A DNA stretch of 38,264 bases from assembly GCA_001782515.1 (NCBI GenBank), contig MFOV01000003.1:40446-78709 (forward strand), in the 5' to 3' direction. The notes beneath the pieces are model-generated. The model worked only from the letters and a program-made list of their open reading frames with translations, ran no database searches and had not been told where the DNA came from. The position numbers were made by a program, and so were the translations under genes. The DNA is from Candidatus Levybacteria bacterium RIFCSPLOWO2_01_FULL_39_10. Lineage in GTDB: Bacteria; Patescibacteriota; Microgenomatia; Levybacterales; UBA12049. This document shows, in pieces, positions 1,576 through 34,613 of this stretch (positions within the stretch are counted from its first letter, which is position 1; each line of letters opens with the position of its first letter).

Positions 1576-1670
1576 CGAAACTCGAATATCGAAGCTCGAA
1601 ACAATATCAAAATTCAAATGTTCAAATTTTCTAAACATAGGTTTCGTATTTCGTGCTTCGTATTTCGGAT
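1576..1670. repeat. Inverted pair of 7-nt-periodic arrays filling the nusA-infB spacer
   Basis: CGAA at 1576, 1583, 1590 and 1597. TTCG at 1643, 1650, 1657 and 1664. The arms pair as 4-bp CGAA:TTCG helices separated by 3-nt mismatches. Confidence 0.8.
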
Positions 1671-3077: not shown

Positions 3078-5447
3078 TTACGCCTGTTTGGTAATCTGAA
3101 GATTTGAACTTTGATCTGCGGATATAACAATTTTATCTCCCCTTACCATTTCGCCTGATAATATCTTTTTGGCAAGAACATCATCTACATTATCCTGAAT
3201 AAATCTCCTCAGAGGCCTGGCGCCGAACTCTTCGTTATAACCATTTTTTGAAATCATATCCAAAGCAGTCTGATCAAAAGATAAGTATATATCCTGTTCT
3301 GACAGTTTTGCCGAAAGATCCTTAAGCATAATGCCAGTAATTTGGCTTATTTCTGCCTGCATAAGAGGCTTAAACATAACGACCTCGTCAAACCTATTCA
3401 AAAGCTCAGGCCTGAATATTCCTTGTTCCTGAATATATTCAAGAAGTGCTTTATTATTAAGTGTTGTGTTCAATGAATTATCTTTTACTAAACTTTCCCT
3501 GATAAACTCAGACCCGGCGTTTGAAGTTGCAATAATAATCGCGTTTGAGAAAGAAAAGGTTTTGCCAGCGCTGTCAGTCATTCTTCCGTCATCAAGAACT
3601 TGGAGAAAAAGATTTAAAATTTTGGAATCCGCTTTTTCAAACTCATCAAGAAGAACTAAAGAAAAAGGATGGGCGTGAATCTGGTCCAAAAACTTGCCGC
3701 TTCCCGATTCAATAAGACGTGTGAGTCCGTCCTCAGTTCCATATTCACTCATATCAAGTCTTACAATATTTGCTTCTCCGCCGAAGTATAGTCTGGCAAG
3801 AGTCTTGGCAGTCTCTGTTTTACCGACCCCTGTTGGACCAAGAAATAAAAATGAAATAGGTTTTTCGCGGGTAATTCCTGCTCTTATTCGCCTCATCGCC
3901 TCAGAAATTGATTTTATTGCCTCATCCTGTCCTATCACGAATTTATGCATTTCACTTTCTAAATTTAGAAGTAGGTTCTTTTCTTTTTCTTTCGGAGCAC
4001 CCATCGGGATTTTGCTCGTCACCTCAATTTTTGAGAGAACATCATCTTCTAAGACTGTTGAATCTCTTCCTTTCGATGTGTAGGCAGAGTTTGCGCTGTC
4101 CATAAGAAGATCAACTGCAATTCCCGGAAGAACACCGTCCATTTTGTATTTCTTGGCAAATTTTGCAGCGGAAACTACAGCCTTATATGAAAGGATAACA
4201 CCGTTCTCATTCTCAATTTCCTCAGTTTTTTCAAAAAGCATTCTAAGAGCATCCGAGAGTCCCGGTTCATCAAGTACGATTATTTCAAATACTTCACGAA
4301 GCGCGTTATTTTCAAAATATTTTTTATACTCCCCTTTTGTCATAGTTGCAATTATCGGCATTTTTCCGTCCTTAAGATACGGAAGCATTGCTCCCGAAAG
4401 ATCAATATTGAATGATGCGCCTCCCAATAAATTTTGAAATTCAGGTATATATAAAACTACATTTACAGAATGTTTTACTTCCTCAATTACAGCCTGAAGC
4501 CTTGTCTCAAGCTCAGATCTGTTACCTGCTCCTGCAACAAGAGGACCAATCATAAGCTCAAGAAATCTTTTGTGATTAAGTTTTTTAGGAAGCTGGCCTT
4601 CATAACTTTGGTAAATAAAATTCTCAACAAGATTTGATTTTCCAGTTCCGATGTCTCCAACAAGAAGCACATTATTGTTAGTCTCTTTCTGCATTGCATC
4701 TATGAGTGTTTTGTACTCCGTTTCTCTGCCATCCACCATGGTTTTCCTTTTAATATTTGAATAGGTATGATCTCTTGTATATTTCATGGTTTCAGGCGTC
4801 CAGCCCCAAACCAAAAGCTCTCCAATTCCAACCCCAGCGTACCGCGGCTTAAACTGCCTGGGTTCCTCCTCTTCAAATATTATTCTTGCCCAGTGGTCAA
4901 TGTTTATAATGTCTTCCTCTTTTAATTTTTTATTAAAAAGGAGCTTGGTTGTGGCTTCGGTCAAAACTAAATAGGAAGTTAAAAGATCAGTTGATGTGAT
5001 ATATTTTCCTTTGAGTTTTTTTGCGATTTCTGCAGCTTTATCTGTAAGTTCTTTTGTCGGCACGTCAAGTGAAACAATTTCATTCTCTGAGATTACTGCT
5101 TTATCTAAAAGAAACTTTGTCTGTTTTAATTTATTGACTGCTGTTAAAAAGGCGGGTGTGTTGTCTTTTTTAAAAACTGCAATGAGTGCTTCTTTTGTAA
5201 ATGCATCAAAAATGTCCTGGGGATTATCGTTTAATGAAGCAGATGGTCGTACAACTTCAAGTGAAAATTTAACGAATACTTCAATAATTATAAAAACTGA
5301 GAGTAAAAAAAGAAAAAAGTTCGGACTATTCCCTGATATATACATGAAAAGGCTCAAAAGTATCAGAACATTTATAACTGCCACTCTAACTATAAATACC
5401 GGAATTGAATGGTAAAAAAGCATTATTCTTATTTTTACATCTCTCAT
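3078..5447 (-). CDS. Membrane-anchored Clp/Hsp100-family double AAA+ ATPase (ClpA/ClpC-like layout)
   Basis: 789 aa. About 60 hydrophobic N-terminal residues, then Clp N-domain-like repeats. NBD1 has Walker A GDIGTGKS but Walker B reads VVLYIPE. NBD2 has GPTGVGKT, LVLLDEFEKA and sensor-2 GARPLRR. Confidence 0.85.
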   Translation of the reverse strand: MRDVKIRIMLFYHSIPVFIVRVAVINVLILLSLFMYISGNSPNFFLFLLSVFIIIEVFVKFSLEVVRPSASLNDNPQDIFDAFTKEALIAVFKKDNTPAFLTAVNKLKQTKFLLDKAVISENEIVSLDVPTKELTDKAAEIAKKLKGKYITSTDLLTSYLVLTEATTKLLFNKKLKEEDIINIDHWARIIFEEEEPRQFKPRYAGVGIGELLVWGWTPETMKYTRDHTYSNIKRKTMVDGRETEYKTLIDAMQKETNNNVLLVGDIGTGKSNLVENFIYQSYEGQLPKKLNHKRFLELMIGPLVAGAGNRSELETRLQAVIEEVKHSVNVVLYIPEFQNLLGGASFNIDLSGAMLPYLKDGKMPIIATMTKGEYKKYFENNALREVFEIIVLDEPGLSDALRMLFEKTEEIENENGVILSYKAVVSAAKFAKKYKMDGVLPGIAVDLLMDSANSAYTSKGRDSTVLEDDVLSKIEVTSKIPMGAPKEKEKNLLLNLESEMHKFVIGQDEAIKSISEAMRRIRAGITREKPISFLFLGPTGVGKTETAKTLARLYFGGEANIVRLDMSEYGTEDGLTRLIESGSGKFLDQIHAHPFSLVLLDEFEKADSKILNLFLQVLDDGRMTDSAGKTFSFSNAIIIATSNAGSEFIRESLVKDNSLNTTLNNKALLEYIQEQGIFRPELLNRFDEVVMFKPLMQAEISQITGIMLKDLSAKLSEQDIYLSFDQTALDMISKNGYNEEFGARPLRRFIQDNVDDVLAKKILSGEMVRGDKIVISADQSSNLQITKQA

Positions 5448-11391: not shown

Positions 11392-12270
11392 TTAGAACCA
11401 GCCTTTTTTCAGGGGCGTGTCCCCAAATTCACGAAGAAGATCTTTTTGCTTTCCGGACAAATTTTTAGGAACTGTTACTTTTATTCTTACGTAATGATCG
11501 CCGCGACCTGATCCTCTAACATGAGAGACTCCTTTTTTGCTTAAACGAATCACTGTATTTGGTTGTGTTCCAGCAGGAATTCTAAGCTTAACATTGCCCT
11601 CAATTGTTTCAACATTAATTTCTGTTCCAAGTGCAGCCTGAGGGAAGGTAATTTCCTCATCGGTTACAATATCGTAACCTTCACGTCGGAATTTTGAATG
11701 TGGGAGAACCTCAATTAGGACGTCGTAATTGCCAAAACGAACACGCGAGCCATTATCAACACCTGCTGGAATTTTTACTGTTTGGTTTTTTCCCTCAATT
11801 GATATTCTTTTGGTAACTCCTTTTACTGCCTCCATAAAATCTATTTCAATCGAGTAAACAGGTCGCCTCTGGGCCCTTCCGAAAGGATTTGCTCCACCAA
11901 AAAACTGTTCAAAAATTTCAAATGGGTCTGAGAAACCTCCGAAATCAAATCCCCCCATATTTCCTGAGGTTGTATAAGTATAGGTGAAAGGGCCATATCT
12001 GCCGCTTTGAGCTCCTCCAAAACCTTGTCCGAAGGGTCCCGCACCTTGTTCAAATGCAGCATGACCGAATTGATCATAAGCCTGTTTTTTTTGGGGGTCT
12101 GACAAAACTTCATAGGCTTTATTTATTTCTTTAAATTTTTCGTGAGCTTGTTTATCCTTATTTCTGTCAGGATGATACTCTAGAGCAAGTTTTCTGTACG
12201 CTTTTTTAATTTCCGCATCACTTGCTCCTTTTGTTACTCCCAAAACTTGATAATAGTCTTTGTCTGCCAT
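11392..12270 (-). CDS. dnaJ: DnaJ-family co-chaperone lacking the Cys-rich zinc-finger domain
   Basis: 292 aa. J domain (DYYQVLGV...HPDRN), G/F-rich region and C-terminal substrate-binding domains. The protein has no cysteine at all. Last gene of the hrcA-grpE-dnaK-dnaJ operon. Confidence 0.9.
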
Positions 12271-12334
12271 TGTTAATAAATTAAAAATTAAAAATGATAT
12301 CTAAAATCTTTAGCCTCGTAATTATACAATAAAA

Positions 12335-12348
12335 ACCGCATGTGCGGT
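12335..12348 (-). terminator. GC hairpin between dnaK and dnaJ (possible attenuator or partial terminator)
   Basis: ACCGCA-TG-TGCGGT, followed on the minus strand by TTTTATTGTATAAT. Confidence 0.5.
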
Positions 12349-12384
12349 CTTTTCAGATATTAGATTTAATTTATTATTTAAAAT

Positions 12385-14313
12385 TTAGTTTACGACTTCG
12401 CCCTCAACTGGTTCGTCTGAATCTTTATTCTTTTTTTCTTTTTCTTTAGACTCATTATTTGCTTCAGAATCCGAACCCTCCGAGGTTTGCGCTTCGCTTG
12501 CCTCTCCTCCTGCTTCCGAACTCTGGTTATACATTTGCTGTCCTACTTTCGAAAGTGTGTCTGAGAGATCTTTTGTTTTTTCTTCAAGATCTTCTTTTGA
12601 ACCGGTGTCTAATATGTCTTTAAGTGCTTTTGTTTTGTCCTCAATTTCTTTTTTGAGATCTTCCTGAATTTTTCCTTCTGCTTCTTTTAAGGTTTTCTCA
12701 GCAGTAAATACAAGTGAATCAGCTTGGTTTTTTGTTTCAACTTTTGCTCTTGCTTCTTCATCGTCTTTTGCGTGTTGTTCGGCATCCTTAGTCATTTTAT
12801 CGATCTCCTCATCTGTTAGCCCGGTTGATCCTGTTATTTTTATGCTCTGTTCTTTGCCTGTTGCCTTGTCTTGCGCTTTTACATTTAAGATTCCGTTTGC
12901 ATCAATATCAAATGTGACCTCAATCTGGGGAACTCCACGAGGAGCTGGTGGGATACCGTCAAGTATGAAACGTCCTAAAGATTTGTTGTCAGCCGCCATT
13001 GCCCTCTCTCCCTGCAAAACATTTATTTCAACCTGTGTCTGGTTATCGGCAGCAGTTGAAAACACCTGAGATTTTGATGCAGGAATTGTTGTATTTTTGG
13101 AAATTAAAGGAGTTGAAACTGCGCCCAGTGTTTCAATTCCCAAAGTAAGAGGGGTTATATCAAGTAACAAAACGTCTTTTACTTCTCCTCCCAGTACTCC
13201 TGCTTGTATTGCTGCTCCTACTGCTACCACTTCATCCGGATTTACGGATTTATTAGGCTCTTTTCCAAAGAATTTAGTAACAGTCTCAACAACTTTTGGC
13301 ATTCGAGTCATACCGCCAACCAAGACTATCTCATTTATGTCTCCTACTTTTACTTTTGCATCTTTAAGAGCTTGTTCTGCTGGTTTTATCGTTTTTTGAA
13401 TAAGAGGGTCTACAATCTGCTCAAGTTTTGAACGAGATAAAGTCATTGTAAGATGAAGCGGTCCCCCCTCTCCTTGAGTTATAAAAGGCTGATTTATTTG
13501 TGTTTCCTGTGATGTTGAAAGTTCAATTTTTGCTTTTTCAGCAGATTCTCTGAGTCTTTGAAGGGCTTGAGGATCTTTTTTAAGATCTACCTGATTCTCT
13601 TTTTTGAATTCTTCTGCAATGTAGTCAATAATTGCCTGATCAAAATCGTCTCCTCCTAAGTGTGTGTCTCCATTTGTTGATTTAACTTCATAAACTCCTT
13701 CTCCGAGTTCTAGAATTGATATATCAAATGTTCCTCCACCAAGATCATAAACTGCAATTGTATGTGCGTTTTTCTTATCGAGTCCGTATGCTAAAGCTGC
13801 AGCTGTTGGCTCATTTATAATTCGGAGAACCTCCAAGCCTGCAATTTCTCCTGCTTGTTTGGTAGCTTGGCGCTGCGAATCATCAAAGTATGCGGGAACT
13901 GTTATAACAGCCTGGGTTACTTTGTCACCTAAATAATTTTCGGCATCTGATTTTATTTTCTGAAGAATTTTTGCGGATATTTCCTGCGGAGTGAAAGTTC
14001 GGCCTTCCACCTCAACATCAGCCATTCCGTCGCGTCCGGCTTTAACTGTATAAGGAAGCCACTTAATGTCGTATTGAACCGACTCATCTTTATATTTTCT
14101 TCCCATGAGTCTTTTTATTGAAAATACAGTTGTTTTGGGTTTAAGTACAAGTTGCCTTTTGGCAACGTCTCCGACAACATGACTCACGGGATCAACCACA
14201 GAGGGTATAACGTTTCTGCCCTCCCTGGAGTGGATGACTTTTGGAGATCCACCTTCCATTACGGCAACGCATGAATTTGTTGTACCTAAATCTATTCCAA
14301 TTATTTTTCCCAT
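12385..14313 (-). CDS. dnaK: Hsp70 chaperone DnaK
   Basis: 642 aa. Motifs [17 protein letters not shown] and [12 protein letters not shown]-like AAAGGA lies upstream. Confidence 0.98.
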
Positions 14314-14330
14314 ATATTCCTTTCAGTCAA

Positions 14331-14397
14331 ATTAAAAATTTAAAATTAAAAGTAAAAAATTAACTTTGAACTTTTCACTTTAAACTTTCAACTTGTT
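14331..14397. repeat. Run of about ten heptads spanning the grpE-dnaK spacer and the last grpE codons
   Basis: ATT at 14331/38/45/59, then ACTT at 14363/70/77/84/91 (TTGAACT TTTCACT TTAAACT TTCAACT). Confidence 0.75.
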
Positions 14398-14851
14398 GTC
14401 GTCCTACGACAACCTGTGCTGGCCTTAACACCCTATCATTCATTATAAAGCCGGACCGCACTTCTTCCAAGACCTTATTTTCTTCCCCAGCCTTTACAGA
14501 AACACATTCCATAGTGTTTGGATTAAACACCTCATTTTCAGTTTTGATTCTTGAAACTCCTTCTTCCGAAAGTACATCCAAAAATTTTTGAATTGAAAGA
14601 TTTAATCCTTCGTCCTGAATATGTTTTTGTGCAAGAAAAAGAGTATCTAAAACCGGCAGAAGATTTAAAATTAGATTTCTGTTTCCGGACTTTATCCATT
14701 CCTGCCTCTCTTCTTCAGTTCTTTTTTCAAGGTTCTGATAGTCAGCAAGTGCCCTTTTTAACAGGTTTTCAAGTTCATTTTCTTGTATTTCAAGTTTCTT
14801 CTCTCTCCGAGCCAAAGGGCTCTCTGAGCCAGTGGCATGTTTCTTCTTCAT
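14375..14851 (-). CDS. grpE: Nucleotide exchange factor GrpE (short form)
   Basis: 158 aa. Coiled-coil N-terminus and C-terminal GrpE beta domain (MNDRVLRPAQVVV). Operon position between hrcA and dnaK. Confidence 0.85.
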   Translation of the reverse strand: MKKKHATGSESPLARREKKLEIQENELENLLKRALADYQNLEKRTEEERQEWIKSGNRNLILNLLPVLDTLFLAQKHIQDEGLNLSIQKFLDVLSEEGVSRIKTENEVFNPNTMECVSVKAGEENKVLEEVRSGFIMNDRVLRPAQVVVGRQQVESLK

Positions 14852-14855
14852 CTTT

Positions 14856-14890
14856 TCTATTGTCTATCTTCTATAATCTAACTTCTAGTT
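14856..14890. repeat. Five direct heptads filling the hrcA-grpE spacer
   Basis: TCTATTG TCTATCT TCTATAA TCTAACT TCTAGTT, with TCTA at 14856/63/70/77/84. Confidence 0.85.
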
Positions 14891-14893
14891 AAA

Positions 14894-15625
14894 CTACCAA
14901 TCGCGCGCTACTTCTTCAACTAAATTGCCGAAATATCTAACAGTTGGGACAATGTAAGTATAGTTGAGCCGAGTTGGTCCGATCACTCCTATCTCTCCTC
15001 CAGTGTGTGATGGGGTTATAAATCTTCTGAAAACAATCCCATATGGGCCCGATAGTTTTGGCCCCAAATCATCTCCTAAAAGAATATGGATATCCTCATC
15101 CTTTGCTACTGTTTCAAAAAGCTTTCTGAAATACTCAAAATCATCAATTGCCGAAAGAAATGTTTTGGTAATATCAATATCATAAAATTCGGGCATATCC
15201 AGAATATTTGCATAACCCGCAAAATAGTAGTCTCCATTATCTGTTGATGATATCGCAAGTGCTCGCGTCTTCTGTGCCAGCTCTTTTGTAATTTCCTGCA
15301 AAAACTCTCTTTCTTTTTTTCTTGAATCCCAGACTTTTTCCTTAACCGCAACTTCCTCAGCAACTGAGAGTTCTTTCTCCTTCATAAGCTGATTAACATA
15401 AAATCTCATTGCCTGGGGTGTAGGAATTCTACCGGATGATGTGTGGGGTTTTTTAAGATATCCAGCCTCAGTAAGGCGCACCATTTCATTTCTTATGGTT
15501 GCGGGGCTTGCCGACAAGTTATGCTTTTTCTCAAGAGTTTCAGATCCCACTGGATTTGCTGTCTCAATATATTCTTCAATCAGAGATTTTAGAATTTCAA
15601 TTTGCCTTTGAGTTAAATCTTGCAT
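14894..15625 (-). CDS. hrcA: Heat-inducible transcription repressor HrcA (short, 243 aa)
   Basis: N-terminal winged helix (RQIEILKSLIEEYIETANPVGSETL...SPATIRNEM) and C-terminal GEIGVIGPTRLNY motif. First gene of the dnaK operon. Confidence 0.9.
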   Translation of the reverse strand: MQDLTQRQIEILKSLIEEYIETANPVGSETLEKKHNLSASPATIRNEMVRLTEAGYLKKPHTSSGRIPTPQAMRFYVNQLMKEKELSVAEEVAVKEKVWDSRKKEREFLQEITKELAQKTRALAISSTDNGDYYFAGYANILDMPEFYDIDITKTFLSAIDDFEYFRKLFETVAKDEDIHILLGDDLGPKLSGPYGIVFRRFITPSHTGGEIGVIGPTRLNYTYIVPTVRYFGNLVEEVARDW

Positions 15626-15640
15626 GGTTCCAATTAATAA

Positions 15641-15716
15641 CTTCTGACTTCTAACTACTAATAACTTCTCTTATTTAAACTTTAGAAGTTAGTAGTTAGT
15701 TGTTAGCAGTTGTCGC
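15641..15716. repeat. Heptad-built imperfect hairpin in the hrcA leader
   Basis: Left arm CTTCTGA CTTCTAA CTACTAA (15641..15661). Right arm TTAGAAG TTAGTAG TTAGTTG TTAGCAG (15682..15709). Each heptad pair matches at 5-6 of 7 positions. Confidence 0.75.
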
Positions 15717-15741: not shown

Positions 15742-15807
15742 CCCGCATAAGCGCCCTTTGGGAGCGCGAGGCTGTAAGCCTCCGGCACAAAGTAAGCTCT
15801 GTGCGGG
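15742..15807. repeat. About 65-nt nested hairpin (unit A1), a paralogue of the core of module copy A
   Basis: Outer stem CCCGCA/TGCGGG, middle stem CTTTG/CAAAG, apical GAGGC-TGTAA-GCCTC. GC-rich in an AT-rich spacer. Confidence 0.7.
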
Positions 15808-15808
15808 A

Positions 15809-15835
15809 TTAGCAGTAATATATCACGTCTGCTAA
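15809..15835 (-). promoter_or_regulatory. CIRCE-like HrcA operator of the hrcA-grpE-dnaK-dnaJ operon
   Basis: Minus strand TTAGCAGAC-N9-TACTGCTAA, against the canonical TTAGCACTC-N9-GAGTGCTAA (7 of 9 matches per arm, correct 9-nt spacer). Confidence 0.7.
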
Positions 15836-15845
15836 TTCATGTCAA
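15817..15845 (-). promoter_or_regulatory. hrcA operon promoter overlapping CIRCE
   Basis: Minus strand TTGACA (15845..15840)-17 nt-TATATT (15822..15817). The -10 box lies in the CIRCE spacer. Confidence 0.6.
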
Positions 15846-15949
15846 GGAGGAAGATACCGTCTGGTATCTTCCGACGATGACCCCGTATAAACGCTCTTGC
15901 GACGCGAGGATGTAAACCTCGGGAGCAAGGAAGTTTATATGGGGTCAAG
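15841..15949 (+). repeat. Copy A of the structured intergenic module
   Basis: GTCAAGGAGGAAG start. P1 GGAAGATACC-GTCT-GGTATCTTCC. Linker CGACGATGA. P2 GACCCCGTATAAAC/GTTTATATGGGGTC enclosing CTTGC-GACG-CGAGG-ATGTAAA-CCTCG-GGA-GCAAG. Ends GGGGTCAAG. Confidence 0.8.
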
Positions 15950-20540: not shown

Positions 20541-21353
20541 ATGATCGATGTTCACTGCCATTTAAACTTTCATGCATTTAGAAAGGACTTTAATGAAGTG
20601 ATAAAAAATGCCAAAGATAATGGAGTCAATAAGATTATAAACGTAGGAACATCTATTGAAACAAGTCTGAGTGCTGTTGAGCTTGCTGAAAAATACGAAA
20701 ATTTATATGCAATCGTAGGTGTGCATCCTCACCACGCTGACAAACTTATCAGAGGCTGGGAAAAAGAGATTGAGAGAATTGCAAAGTCCTCAAAAAAAAT
20801 TGTGGGAATTGGAGAAATTGGCCTCGATTACTATTCATATAAGTCGAATGGAATTGTCGAACCAAAAATTCAGAAAGAAGTGTTCATTAAACAGATTGAA
20901 ATCGCGAACAAATTAAAACTTCCCCTGCAAATCCACAACCGACATGCAGGAGAGGACATTCTCAACATCCTCAATAGTCAATGGTCAAATGTCAATTGTC
21001 AGCCCCCCGGCATGTTTCACTGCATGTCAGGAGATGTTAATTTTCTTAAAAAAGTACTGGATTTAGGGTTTTATGTTGGTTTTGACGGGAATATTACATA
21101 CGAAGGTATTCCCAAGGGAGAAAATACTCCCCTTCCTGAACTTGTTAAAAATGCGCCAATTGATCGAATTGTTACAGAAACTGATGCGCCTTTTCTAACT
21201 CCCCAGCCTTACCGCGGTAGTCGCAACATTCCTTCCTATGTTATAATTACAGCAACCGAAATAGCCAAAATTAAGGGATTGGATTTGTCTGTCGTAGAAG
21301 CACAAACCACCGAAAACGCTAAGAATTTATTCAAACTAAACGCTAGTGGCTAA
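20541..21353 (+). CDS. tatD: TatD-family metal-dependent hydrolase/DNase
   Basis: 270 aa. Motifs HCHLNF, GEIGLDY, HNRHA and TETDAPF. Confidence 0.9.
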   Translation: MIDVHCHLNFHAFRKDFNEVIKNAKDNGVNKIINVGTSIETSLSAVELAEKYENLYAIVGVHPHHADKLIRGWEKEIERIAKSSKKIVGIGEIGLDYYSYKSNGIVEPKIQKEVFIKQIEIANKLKLPLQIHNRHAGEDILNILNSQWSNVNCQPPGMFHCMSGDVNFLKKVLDLGFYVGFDGNITYEGIPKGENTPLPELVKNAPIDRIVTETDAPFLTPQPYRGSRNIPSYVIITATEIAKIKGLDLSVVEAQTTENAKNLFKLNASG

Positions 21354-21369
21354 ATGCTAATGGCTAATT
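21342..21369. repeat. Four direct GCTA heptads spanning the tatD stop codon
   Basis: GCTAGTG GCTAAAT GCTAATG GCTAATT, with GCTA at 21342/49/56/63. The array ends 4 nt before the next ATG. Confidence 0.85.
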
Positions 21370-29497: not shown

Positions 29498-29519
29498 AAG
29501 TCAAAATTGATTTAAAAAA

Positions 29520-29597
29520 CCTGCCTGCTCGCCTCGATTCGGCGAAGCGGGCCGGCAGGCGGGCCTGCCCGCAAAGCGGGCTTGCATTGCAGGCGGG
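29520..29597. repeat. GC-rich cluster of nested hairpins in the groES leader
   Basis: CCTGCC/GGCAGG enclosing GCTCGCC-TCGATTC-GGCGAAGC, then GCCTGC/GCAGGC enclosing CCGC-AAA-GCGG. Shares GCCTGCCCGC with the insertion in module copy C. Confidence 0.65.
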
Positions 29598-31006: not shown

Positions 31007-31011
31007 TTAGC

Positions 31012-31069
31012 GTTAAGGGGAAAGCAAAAAGAGTAAAGAAAACTTAACGCTTAACGCTTCACCCTTCTC
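31012..31069. terminator. Long heptad-periodic imperfect hairpin between convergent genes
   Basis: AAG at 31015/22/29/36 faces CTT at 31043/50/57/64 around an AAAA loop. About 18 of 28 positions pair. Confidence 0.45.
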
Positions 31070-31075
31070 CCTATT

Positions 31076-32824
31076 TTATTTTTCAATCAATGAAAATAGG
31101 GCATCTTGGGGAATGTCAATTTTTGCAACATCAAGCATTTTAGCTTTTCCTTTTTTTTGCGCCTCTAAAAGCTTGTCTTTTCTTGTTCTATCCCCTCCGT
31201 AAAGACCCGCGATTACATCTTTTCTGAAAGGAGGAATTTCAGTTCTTGAAATTATTCTGTCTCCCGCTACTGCTTGTATAATTTGTCTGATTTGTTTTTT
31301 AGGCAGAACTTTTTTTAGTTTTTCTGCTTTTTCCCGCCCTGTCTTCTGAAGTTCATCTCTGTAGACATATTCCGACAAAATATCTATTAGTACACTATTT
31401 ATTTTAATATCCATTTTTACAAGATCAGCACTTCTGTAATTAGTTACCTCATAGTCTATACTTGCAAACCCTGAAGTTGCTGACTTAAGTTCTGATGACA
31501 AACCTTTTATAAGCACTCCGTAAGGCATTTCATATTTAAAAATTGCCGTTTCTTGAAAATATGTTAGATCAATAAGCGTACCTTTTCTTTTTTGGCAAAT
31601 CGTAATAACTCTCCCCACATAGGAAGCTGGCGAAAATATAGTAAGGTCCATATAGGGCTCATAAATCTGCCCATTTTCTTTTGTTTCATAAATTACCTGA
31701 GGGGAAGTTAATATAACATCGAGATTCTCCTCGTTTTTTAGTCTTTGTCTTACAATATCTGCATGCAAAAGTCCTAAAAATCCCACCTTAAATCCGCTCC
31801 CCAGAAATGATGAGTATTCAGACGTTATTGAGATTGAGGTATCGTTTAGACTGTACTTAAAAAGTCCTTCTTTCAAATGAACAAGATCTGATGTTGATCT
31901 TGGATAAAGGCCGAAAAACACCATAGGTTTTGGCTTTTTATATCCGGGTAATGGTTTAAAATTTGATATTTGATTTTTGATATTTGATATTGTTACCGTG
32001 TCACCGACTTGTGCCAAATGAATATCTTTAATGCCTGTTACAATGTATCCAATTTCTCCGTTATTTATAGATTCTTTCTTGTCAAGAAACGGCTTGAAAT
32101 ACCCAACTTCCAAAGCTTTGGTTAGTTTTTGGCTGTGCAAAAAAACAATACCCTCACCCAAACTTAATTTCCCGTCAACTATTCTTACATAAACAACTAC
32201 ACCTCTATGTTCATCATAAAATGCGTCAAAAACTAAAGCTCTCAGGCTCTTTTGTGAGTTATCGGAAGGAGGCGGAATTCTCTCAATAACTCCATCAAGC
32301 AGGTTTTCTACGTTTTTTCCGCTTTTGGCAGAAACGTGGATAATTTCCTCTTTTTTAAATCCGAATATCTCATAAAGTTCAGTCTCAGTTTCTGCTATTT
32401 TCGCAGTTGGTAAGTCAATCTTATTAATAACTGGGATAATCTTAAGATTTTCTTTTTTTGCAGAATTAAAGTGTGCAACAGTCTGCGCCTGAATTCCCTG
32501 TGTTGCATCAACAAGAAGTATTACTCCTTCACAAGCAGCCAGTGTGCGAGATACCTCATATGAAAAATCAACGTGTCCGGGAGTATCAATCAGATTTAGA
32601 ATGTATTCGGTATTTCCTTTTTTATAGTTCATCCTTACTGGAGCTAGCTTGATTGTTATTCCGCGCTCACGCGACACAGGATTTTGATCAAGATATTGAT
32701 CTTGTAACTGATTCTTGGAAACAGTGCCTGTAATCTCCAGAAATCTGTCAGAAAGTGTTGATTTGCCGTGATCAATATGGGCAATAATTGCAAAATTTCT
32801 TATATTTGAACTCATATTAACCAA
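31076..32824 (-). CDS. lepA: Elongation factor 4 (LepA)
   Basis: 582 aa. Motifs IAHIDHGKSTLSDR, DTPGHVDF and NKIDL. C-terminal LepA motif GDRTRKDKLLEAQKKGKAKM. Confidence 0.97.
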   Translation of the reverse strand: MVNMSSNIRNFAIIAHIDHGKSTLSDRFLEITGTVSKNQLQDQYLDQNPVSRERGITIKLAPVRMNYKKGNTEYILNLIDTPGHVDFSYEVSRTLAACEGVILLVDATQGIQAQTVAHFNSAKKENLKIIPVINKIDLPTAKIAETETELYEIFGFKKEEIIHVSAKSGKNVENLLDGVIERIPPPSDNSQKSLRALVFDAFYDEHRGVVVYVRIVDGKLSLGEGIVFLHSQKLTKALEVGYFKPFLDKKESINNGEIGYIVTGIKDIHLAQVGDTVTISNIKNQISNFKPLPGYKKPKPMVFFGLYPRSTSDLVHLKEGLFKYSLNDTSISITSEYSSFLGSGFKVGFLGLLHADIVRQRLKNEENLDVILTSPQVIYETKENGQIYEPYMDLTIFSPASYVGRVITICQKRKGTLIDLTYFQETAIFKYEMPYGVLIKGLSSELKSATSGFASIDYEVTNYRSADLVKMDIKINSVLIDILSEYVYRDELQKTGREKAEKLKKVLPKKQIRQIIQAVAGDRIISRTEIPPFRKDVIAGLYGGDRTRKDKLLEAQKKGKAKMLDVAKIDIPQDALFSLIEK

Positions 32825-34540: not shown

Positions 34541-34547
34541 AAAATTA

Positions 34548-34584
34548 GCGGGCTTGCCCCGCCGAAGCTTTATGCGTAGGCGGG
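34548..34584 (-). promoter_or_regulatory. murJ leader with mutually exclusive GC hairpins
   Basis: In the minus-strand RNA, CCCGCC can pair with GGCGGG, or GCGGG-GCAAG-CCCGC can form, followed by UAAUUUU and the AUG. Confidence 0.4.
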
Positions 34585-34613
34585 TTGCGATAATAAGTAT
34601 ATCATGCTAAAAT
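34585..34613 (+). promoter_or_regulatory. rpsT promoter
   Basis: TTGCGA-17 nt-(TGc)TAAAAT, ending 6 nt before the ATG at 34620. Confidence 0.55.
34596..34604 (-). promoter_or_regulatory. Extended -10 promoter of murJ
   Basis: Minus strand TGaTATACT, back to back with the rpsT -10 box. Confidence 0.4.

Follow-up and report, generated by a model that had tools for sequence, protein, structure and literature searches.

The stretch of DNA analysed here (38,264 nt, hereafter the window) is G000:C3:40446-78709, where G000 designates the genome under study and C numbers its contigs. It belongs to a metagenome-assembled genome of 0.92 Mb and 37% G+C from an ultra-small groundwater bacterium of the Levyibacteriota (Patescibacteria/CPR). 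The minus-strand genes nusA and infB are separated in it by a spacer of 106 nt (Table 1), which was predicted to hold four CGAA motifs facing four TTCG motifs, each set with 7-nt spacing. Direct reading of the window confirmed both sets, at 1576-1579, 1583-1586, 1590-1593 and 1597-1600 for CGAA and at 1643-1646, 1650-1653, 1657-1660 and 1664-1667 for TTCG, and TRF called period 7 at 1575-1602 and 1642-1672. The expected 4-bp helices with regular 3-nt mismatches were likewise recovered, as the spacer folds into helices of 4-6 bp split by 3-nt internal loops. Relative to dinucleotide shuffles, its MFE had z = -3.1 for the sense strand (-24.5 kcal/mol) and z = -2.8 for the antisense strand (-20.7 kcal/mol). 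Rfam displayed no match at gathering score in the whole window, and only chance-level matches (E of about 0.5-0.9) were recorded around the nusA-infB hairpin. An intrinsic terminator was rejected by inspection, the stems being weak 4-bp helices within essential operons.

Table 1. Genes, hairpins and period-7 arrays of the window, with copies located on other contigs (C4, C15) of the same genome.
Feature	Position	Strand	Basis or remark
infB	128-1564	minus	Pfam
nusA	1671-2879	minus	Pfam
Clp-type ATPase gene	3078-5447	minus	Pfam
dnaJ	11392-12270	minus	Pfam
dnaK	12385-14313	minus	Pfam
grpE	14375-14851	minus	Pfam
hrcA	14894-15625	minus	Pfam
lepA	31076-32824	minus	Pfam
nusA-infB hairpin, 5' arm (mRNA sense)	1642-1670	minus	four CGAA-core heptads; begins directly after nusA stop codon; homologous arms at C4, C15 and C6
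nusA-infB hairpin, loop	1604-1641	minus	sense strand ...ATGTTTAGAAAATTTGAACATTTGAATTTTGATATTG
nusA-infB hairpin, 3' arm	1573-1603	minus	four TTCG-core heptads on sense; ends 8 nt upstream of infB ATG
Empty CGAA-family copies	nusA-infB; C4:17738-17854; C15:12715-12830		at least three without gene
Small hairpin, AAGATTT x2 facing AATCTTT x2	2885-2919	minus	between nusA promoter -10 box and nusA ATG; z = -4.6
grpE-dnaK hairpin, AAGTTNA heptads facing TTTTAAN heptads	14329-14400	minus	folding and reading
Solo direct array (TAGANNN)5	14852-14893	minus	occupies entire hrcA-grpE spacer
Hairpin, AACTNCT heptads facing AGNAGTT heptads	15636-15716	minus	adjoins hrcA ATG upstream; downstream of CIRCE-like operator and promoter
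Solo direct array (GCTAANN)4	21336-21369	plus	spans end of TatD-family gene and spacer before next ORF
Hairpin, CTTNNNN heptads	31007-31075		occupies spacer between convergent PKD-domain gene and lepA
In-frame array (ATTTGAT)4.4 (plus), ATATCAA on sense	31961-31991	minus	inside lepA; encodes ISNIKNQISN in variable loop
In-frame array (TCAATTG)4.4	20971-21001	plus	inside TatD-family gene
Weak AT-rich period-7 tract, TTAAAAA x3	12271-12312	minus	dnaK-dnaJ spacer; loose pairing with 12360-12384 around terminator-like GC hairpin
Weak AT-rich period-7 tract	76-109	minus	downstream of infB; earlier listed as 49-107

Period 7 was found by TRF at no fewer than 12 loci of the window. The original prediction had listed eight spacers besides nusA-infB; four of them proved to be inverted heptad pairs (2885-2919, 14331-14397, 15641-15716 and 31015-31070; fold z from -2.6 to -5.3) two are solo direct arrays, and the last two are weak and AT-rich. 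The grpE-dnaK hairpin folds on the mRNA strand only (MFE of -20.1 in sense, z = -3.3, versus -5.8 in antisense). The final codons of grpE, stop codon included, are contributed by its left arm, and the hairpin is followed by a Shine-Dalgarno-like AAAGGA.

Some neighbouring features of other kinds were also recorded. In the dnaK-dnaJ spacer, a terminator-like GC hairpin (12325-12352, AAAACCGCATGTGCGGTCTTTTC on the plus strand) is nested between two AT-rich period-7 tracts. The hrcA promoter (15790-15850, minus strand) displays a TTGACA -35 box, and its -10 box is overlapped by a CIRCE-like inverted repeat (TTAGCAG-N13-CTGCTAA); these elements are conserved across the genus. Between them and the hrcA ATG, the genome studied here has an extra module of about 110 nt together with the heptad hairpin. 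GC-rich palindromic repeats occur at 29498-29586 and 34541-34606 (e.g. CCTGCCTGC...GCCGGCAGG and GCGGG...CCCGC; MFE of -44 and -19 kcal/mol, respectively) in this otherwise AT-rich genome, and form a family distinct from the heptad hairpins.

Genome-wide, the autocorrelation of intergenic DNA peaked at lags 7, 14 and 21, and coding DNA showed no such peaks (0.92 Mb genome). Strong arrays, defined as intergenic segments with at least 17/21 lag-k identities, numbered 60 at lag 7 versus 0.35 +/- 0.8 in dinucleotide-preserving shuffles, in line with the prediction that the signal would exceed shuffled controls. The other lags between 4 and 13, as well as lag 15, yielded 0-4, and the 22 found at lag 14 correspond to a harmonic. 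Of 150 intergenic arrays, 60 (about 40%) had an inverted partner no more than 150 nt away, with a minimum of 16/21 matches, compared with 15 (10%) when it was sought on the flanks of another array. Interrupted hairpins, which had been proposed from the nusA-infB case, are formed by many arrays. Neighbouring arrays also had reverse-complementary consensus heptads much more frequently than random pairs did.

Dozens of heptad words coexist in the genome and nearly every locus has its own. Within an array, units resemble their neighbours and drift stepwise. The number of units peaks at 4-5 and reaches at most 8, in spacers and genes alike; simple heptamer slippage, suggested at first, does not fit so narrow a range of sizes. 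A strict rule of a 4-nt core followed by a 3-nt variable block was rejected, since variable columns were only modestly more contiguous than chance (27/84 versus 20% expected, p = 0.006; not significant for two columns).

Arrays occurred in 16% of co-directional spacers versus 8% of divergent or convergent ones, and 35 of the 80 arrays lying in co-directional spacers end 10 nt or less from the next start codon. The statement that arrays stop at or near ORF borders holds for part of them only, as 68 of 185 arrays genome-wide are located inside ORFs, some of them in frame. Since ancestral spacers measured 0-30 nt, any surviving insert must adjoin both ORFs, which explains the stops at borders without targeting. 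Fold energies and G.U pair counts displayed no asymmetry between sense and antisense in 52 co-directional array-bearing spacers (27 versus 23), nor did the arrays differ between strands in A/T or G/C bias. There was consequently no general evidence for selection acting on RNA rather than DNA, the grpE-dnaK hairpin excepted; selection on RNA only was rejected, fold energies and base composition being strand-symmetric overall and the grpE-dnaK asymmetry a single case.

The original prediction also held that periodicity, and not a shared motif, is what the loci have in common. This is not the whole story, since the arms and loop of the nusA-infB hairpin match copies on contigs C4, C15 and C6 and many copies in relatives. 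Its loop and right arm match C4:17806-17839 (94% over 34 nt), and its loop motif was found repeatedly in the same spacer across Levyibacteriota. The C4 and C15 copies share a layout composed of a CGAA arm, ACAAATTC, an ATG-containing loop, GAATTTTGATATTG, a TTCG arm, GGATTT and the ATG of the next gene. At C6:2629-3087, arms of the CGAA family enclose a gene (C6:2675-3034) for a 119-aa PF05635 protein, and this cassette matches the C4 and C15 copies. In alignments, the loop ATG of the empty copies falls on the start codon of PF05635 (CGAAACAAATTCAAATG versus CGAAACAAATCAAAATG; 1638-1636 in the nusA-infB loop), and the right part of the loop, at nusA-infB as in the other empty copies, aligns with the sequence directly 3' of the PF05635 stop codon in full cassettes. 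Because the two loop halves align in this way, the empty hairpins, including that of nusA-infB, look like internal-deletion derivatives of a gene-bearing cassette.

DNA searches uncovered full homologues of the C6 cassette (both arms and ORF, 67-74% nucleotide identity) in genomes G014 (two), G006, G023, G024 and G031. Except for G014 versus G006, their flanks were unrelated, indicating that the cassette lies at different sites in different genomes. Arm-only copies were numerous in relatives (e.g. 21 matches in G002). The loop motif ATGTTTARRAAWTTTGRA, sought in relatives as an ORF start, was no more frequent than its reversed control. Within the genome studied here, copies are diverged and no recent identical ones were seen. 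The arm cores are CGAA/TTCG in G000, G014 and G006 and CTAA/TTAG, in both arms and in nearly every unit, in G023 and G024. Judging from these alignments, the change is compensatory and concerted: either the pairing of arms would be selected or one arm would be copied from the other.

Seven PF05635 genes above the Pfam cut-off were detected in the genome. Five are bracketed by pairing inverted heptad arrays, one is truncated with a one-sided array and one is associated with a non-heptad palindrome. With a fixed threshold, bracketing was recorded for 4/6 PF05635 genes versus 18/948 other genes (Fisher p = 3e-6). Inverted arms of short period (7, sometimes 8) were also present at most of 20 PF05635 genes sampled in 10 related genomes. 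In sampled DNA, strong lag-7 arrays averaged 1.5 per 100 kb in the seven PF05635-free genomes versus 10.2 in the nine with the gene (Spearman rho = 0.63), a correlation that overstates the link because these genomes are related and not independent. Three genomes with 3-9 PF05635 genes (G015, G027 and G039) displayed few or no strong arrays in samples of 40-60 kb, and the PF05635-free G009 and G003 still keep a single hairpin at grpE-dnaK or hrcA.

PF05635 is the family of 23S-rRNA intervening-sequence proteins, a four-helix bundle related to Avd. We know of no catalytic activity for it. Among solved structures, 2RLD, whose entry contains five chains of an uncharacterised protein, is the closest to the C6 protein, and Avd of diversity-generating retroelements is pentameric. 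No transposase, nuclease or reverse transcriptase tied to heptad elements was found in the genome, nor any reverse transcriptase that could be the partner of an Avd-like protein. The GxxExxY nuclease PF13366 was not found either, and its link to heptad arrays was rejected.

Other small genes were considered as carriers. None of 12 small GIY-YIG genes had heptad arrays on both sides, as would be expected for an Ssn-type association. The two Y1-transposase (PF01797) genes are flanked by GC-rich palindromes with a lag-7 score of 12 or less, hence not by heptads in a REP/RAYT-like arrangement. In total, about 13-16 stand-alone small GIY-YIG genes and the two Y1-transposase-like ones, flanked by GC-rich hairpins or tRNA-like sequence, make up a heavy selfish-gene load for a 0.92-Mb genome.

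Comparison of orthologous spacers, suggested at the outset, revealed gain, loss and replacement of heptads. The nusA-infB junction is a hairpin-free spacer of 33 nt in eight congeners. A CGAA-type hairpin occupies it in four genomes of the genus (the one studied here, G002, G012 and G011) and in two of other genera, and hairpins of quite different heptads (AATTTTN, CTAATNN, AACTCAG) in further genomes. Among 75 Levyibacteriota, this spacer is at most 45 nt long in 23 and at least 90 nt long in 24; heptad hairpins account for most of the latter. In L006/G013, the AACTCAG-type hairpin overlaps the 3' end of nusA, where the repeat encodes the C-terminal residues.

In the nusA leader, about 9 nt separate the -10 box from the ATG, without hairpin, in eight congeners; hairpins of three different types were present in G000, G013, G002, G012 and G006. 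The nusA promoter of the hairpin-free congeners (TTGAAG-N17-TATACT, about 9 nt before the ATG) would render nusA nearly leaderless, and no Shine-Dalgarno sequence was visible. The grpE-dnaK junction is TAAT-ATG (1-nt spacer) in six congeners. In G000, G002, G009/G001, G013 and G015, it is occupied by no fewer than four unrelated heptad hairpins, placed precisely between the stop and start codons. The hrcA-grpE array was restricted to G000 and G013, G006 having a different heptad and other congeners 0-20 nt. The hrcA-leader hairpin is common to G000, G013, G012, G002 and G003, and is absent in G004, G007, G008, G009 and G010. No target-site duplication was seen when filled and empty junctions were compared at the nusA leader and grpE-dnaK.

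Since the same junctions are empty or hold other heptads in sister genomes, the hairpins are insertions and not a host requirement; the structural requirement between cistrons that had been envisaged is unlikely, given the hairpin-free nusA-infB spacers of eight congeners and the 1-nt grpE-dnaK spacers of six. Array density was about 0-5 per 100 kb in sister genomes of the genus versus 12-25 in array-rich ones, and the period-7 signal is thus lineage-specific and confined to part of the genus. Neither of the two outcomes that the original prediction had set as refutations was obtained.

Among the arrays inside genes, that of lepA replaces a variable loop with a net gain of five residues and is absent from PF05635-free congeners and outgroups. 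Different arrays, again with the TCAA core, occupy this site in G006 and G013, and in G002 a whole CGAA hairpin is inserted in frame elsewhere in lepA. The lepA array is identical over 33/33 nt in G000, G012 and G002, three genomes between which lepA as a whole shows 67-74% identity and its third codon positions only 44-53%. Its identity in so diverged a gene indicates that it is constrained or homogenised at the DNA level. As for other housekeeping genes, perfect arrays of four to five units (e.g. AATTCGA, GTTCAAA) occur in frame at C1:12876-14144 (pgk) and in large ORFs at C2:40587-43460 and C23:54662-57625. They encode peptides of the NSKFEIRNSKF- or SKFKVQSSKF-type, and one 958-aa gene holds eight arrays.

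We favour, with moderate confidence, the reading that the period-7 spacers are small palindromic DNA repeats with arms of four to five heptads, and that they are gene-less members of PF05635-cassette elements. Full-length members carry the PF05635 gene between two heptad arms, and the nusA-infB hairpin looks like an internally deleted, gene-less member of the CGAA family. Within only a part of the genus, such elements have come and gone, and have given way to one another, at minimal stop-start junctions as well as in 5' leaders and permissive loops of proteins. In a given family, the two arms change together. They may spread by copying and persist where a compact hairpin, transcribed within the operon mRNA and keeping the ends of the insert close, does little harm. 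By analogy with rRNA intervening sequences, the hairpin may be cut by RNase III, and the host would have no need of the elements. For most arrays, whose heptads match no other locus, an origin in situ is possible.

Such an origin in place might be extended to all arrays. A lineage-specific replication or repair defect would then duplicate 7-nt units, with arm-to-arm copying and without any mobile element, PF05635 genes merely landing there. We regard this as unlikely. It would agree with the private heptad of nearly every locus, the stepwise drift between units and the confinement of arrays to part of the genus, and the lepA loop, where arrays differ in three lineages around a common TCAA core, suggests change in place. 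Yet slippage would give a long tail of lengths, and arrays have 4-5 units and never more than 8; nor does it accommodate the enrichment of lag 7 alone, not of lags 5, 6, 8 or 9. The non-repetitive loop of the CGAA family, common to unlinked loci and to ORF-bearing cassettes at unrelated sites, also argues against it, as does the lepA array with its 33 identical nt, because a rapidly slipping tract would have diverged between genomes in which 47-56% of third positions differ.

Host cis-regulation, in which arrays would be protein-binding sites, or hairpins for RNase III or stability, tuning the downstream cistron, seems rather improbable. This function has been proposed for TAACTGA repeats and for Nostoc heptamers. 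In Nostoc constructs, deletion of heptamers changed reporter output (bioRxiv 10.1101/2022.06.06.494920). The proximity of many arrays to the next start codon, their doubled frequency between co-directional genes, the conservation of some sites across several genomes and the mRNA-strand-specific fold at grpE-dnaK could be explained in this manner; but the same essential operons work in sister genomes with hairpin-free junctions of 1-33 nt, and arrays also reside in coding regions and between convergent genes. In addition, a single sequence-specific binder is unlikely with words varying by locus, and overall neither base composition nor fold energy displays strand bias. Chance low-complexity sequence in AT-rich spacers, which might apply to the weak, very AT-rich loci 49-107 and 12278-12312, is already refuted by the 60 arrays versus 0.35 in shuffles (0-4 at other lags) and by inverted partners at four times the control rate.

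The preferred reading of PF05635-cassette elements could be carried further, albeit speculatively. It is conceivable, if doubtful, that PF05635 four-helix-bundle proteins are the trans-acting partner of widespread, undescribed mobile palindromic elements, a protein ring reading the arm with one heptad per subunit. This idea was suggested by the five chains of 2RLD, the pentameric Avd and the arms of four to five units. If true, it would account for the 7-nt register as well as for modules of four to five units, and it would unify rRNA intervening sequences with the STRR repeats of cyanobacteria and with repeats of the TAACTGA type.

With regard to known systems, STRR sequences were reportedly described in heterocystous cyanobacteria by Mazel and colleagues in 1990. 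The original claim that no described element class matches cannot be maintained, since publications on cyanobacteria, Xanthomonas and Beggiatoaceae describe heptamer repeats close to gene borders (PMC4692102, PMC4679880, bioRxiv 10.1101/2022.06.06.494920). In Xanthomonas and Nostoc, GGGAATC and GGGGA(C/T)T heptamers prefer four units and lie between aligned ORFs near start or stop codons (Rehm et al. 2015, PMC4692102). The four-unit preference of GGGAATC-type repeats was attributed to G-quadruplex formation and arrays reach 26 units (PMC4692102), the published range of maxima for heptameric arrays being 26-43 units. For Nostoc heptamers, modest regulatory effects were reported (bioRxiv 10.1101/2022.06.06.494920).

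The arrays described here share with the cyanobacterial and Xanthomonas heptamers the tandem 7-nt units, their excess in non-coding and mostly intergenic DNA, the co-directional ORFs, the proximity to start or stop codons and the preference for about four units. They lack the dominant words and the variable copy number with long arrays of that class. Those genomes have one or few G-rich words, whereas G000 has dozens of AT-rich ones; its arrays never exceed eight units, about 40% form inverted pairs and some are in frame in genes. None of its words can form a quadruplex, so that the four-to-five-unit preference cannot be explained here by G-quadruplexes.

TAACTGA direct repeats are known from marine Beggiatoaceae, some cyanobacteria and Bacteroidetes (MacGregor 2015, PMC4679880). 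Likewise, they comprise two to six heptamers a few nt upstream of start codons, essential genes included, often without canonical RBS, and their phylogenetic distribution is patchy (PMC4679880). Unlike the arrays of G000, they consist of a single word, are nearly all direct (one indirect repeat in 170 sets) and have no reported link to a carried gene (PMC4679880).

PF05635 ORFs were found in rRNA insertions of CPR bacteria (bioRxiv 10.1101/2024.02.27.582315). The full cassettes resemble such intervening sequences by a PF05635 gene enclosed in stem-forming inverted repeats and tolerated in a transcribed essential region, the nusA-infB locus corresponding to a gene-less derivative. ORF-bearing intervening sequences are a feature of the 23S rRNA of Leptospira and Coxiella. 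In contrast to these, all copies seen here are in mRNA spacers, leaders or coding loops of ORFs and none is in a 23S rRNA helix (the 23S gene is absent from the assembly), most have lost the ORF and their arms are heptad arrays.

Short intergenic palindromes with many gene-less and few gene-bearing copies, present or absent between relatives, also recall REP/REPIN repeats and MITEs. REP/REPIN repeats flank the Y1 (PF01797) RAYT transposase, which is thought to mobilise them. As in MITEs, the copies at nusA-infB, C4 and C15 have their arms and inner ends in common with a longer element that bears a gene, here the C6 cassette and its homologues. Unlike both groups, the carried gene encodes a four-helix bundle and not a known transposase, target-site duplications were not seen and the arms are internally periodic. 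Rickettsia palindromic elements (RPE), which Ogata and colleagues are said to have described in 2000, likewise occur in frame at permissive sites of conserved coding genes. They reportedly differ by a size of 100-150 bp, by the absence of periodicity and by carrying no gene.

No paper that connects heptamer arrays with PF05635 cassettes, or that reports such arrays in CPR bacteria, came up in the literature search. The many-worded form with inverted arms in a CPR bacterium, together with its PF05635 link, looks new. For 35 years, reports of heptamer repeats close to gene borders have come without a mechanism, and this genome offers a compact and clean case, with inserts in 1-nt stop-start junctions of essential operons, absent in sister genomes, with gene-bearing and gene-less forms and co-evolving arms. 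The PF05635 cassette is thereby a testable candidate for the parent element of heptamer repeats. The AT-rich arrays also show that the four-unit preference seen elsewhere is not dependent on G-quadruplexes. For the annotation of CPR genomes, odd peptide inserts in housekeeping proteins, as well as stop codons and 3' ends supplied by repeat arms, should be read as repeat-derived. A labelling problem in the public record was also encountered, TPA assemblies of many close relatives being titled 'uncultured Gammaproteobacteria bacterium' although they clearly belong to Levyibacteriota.
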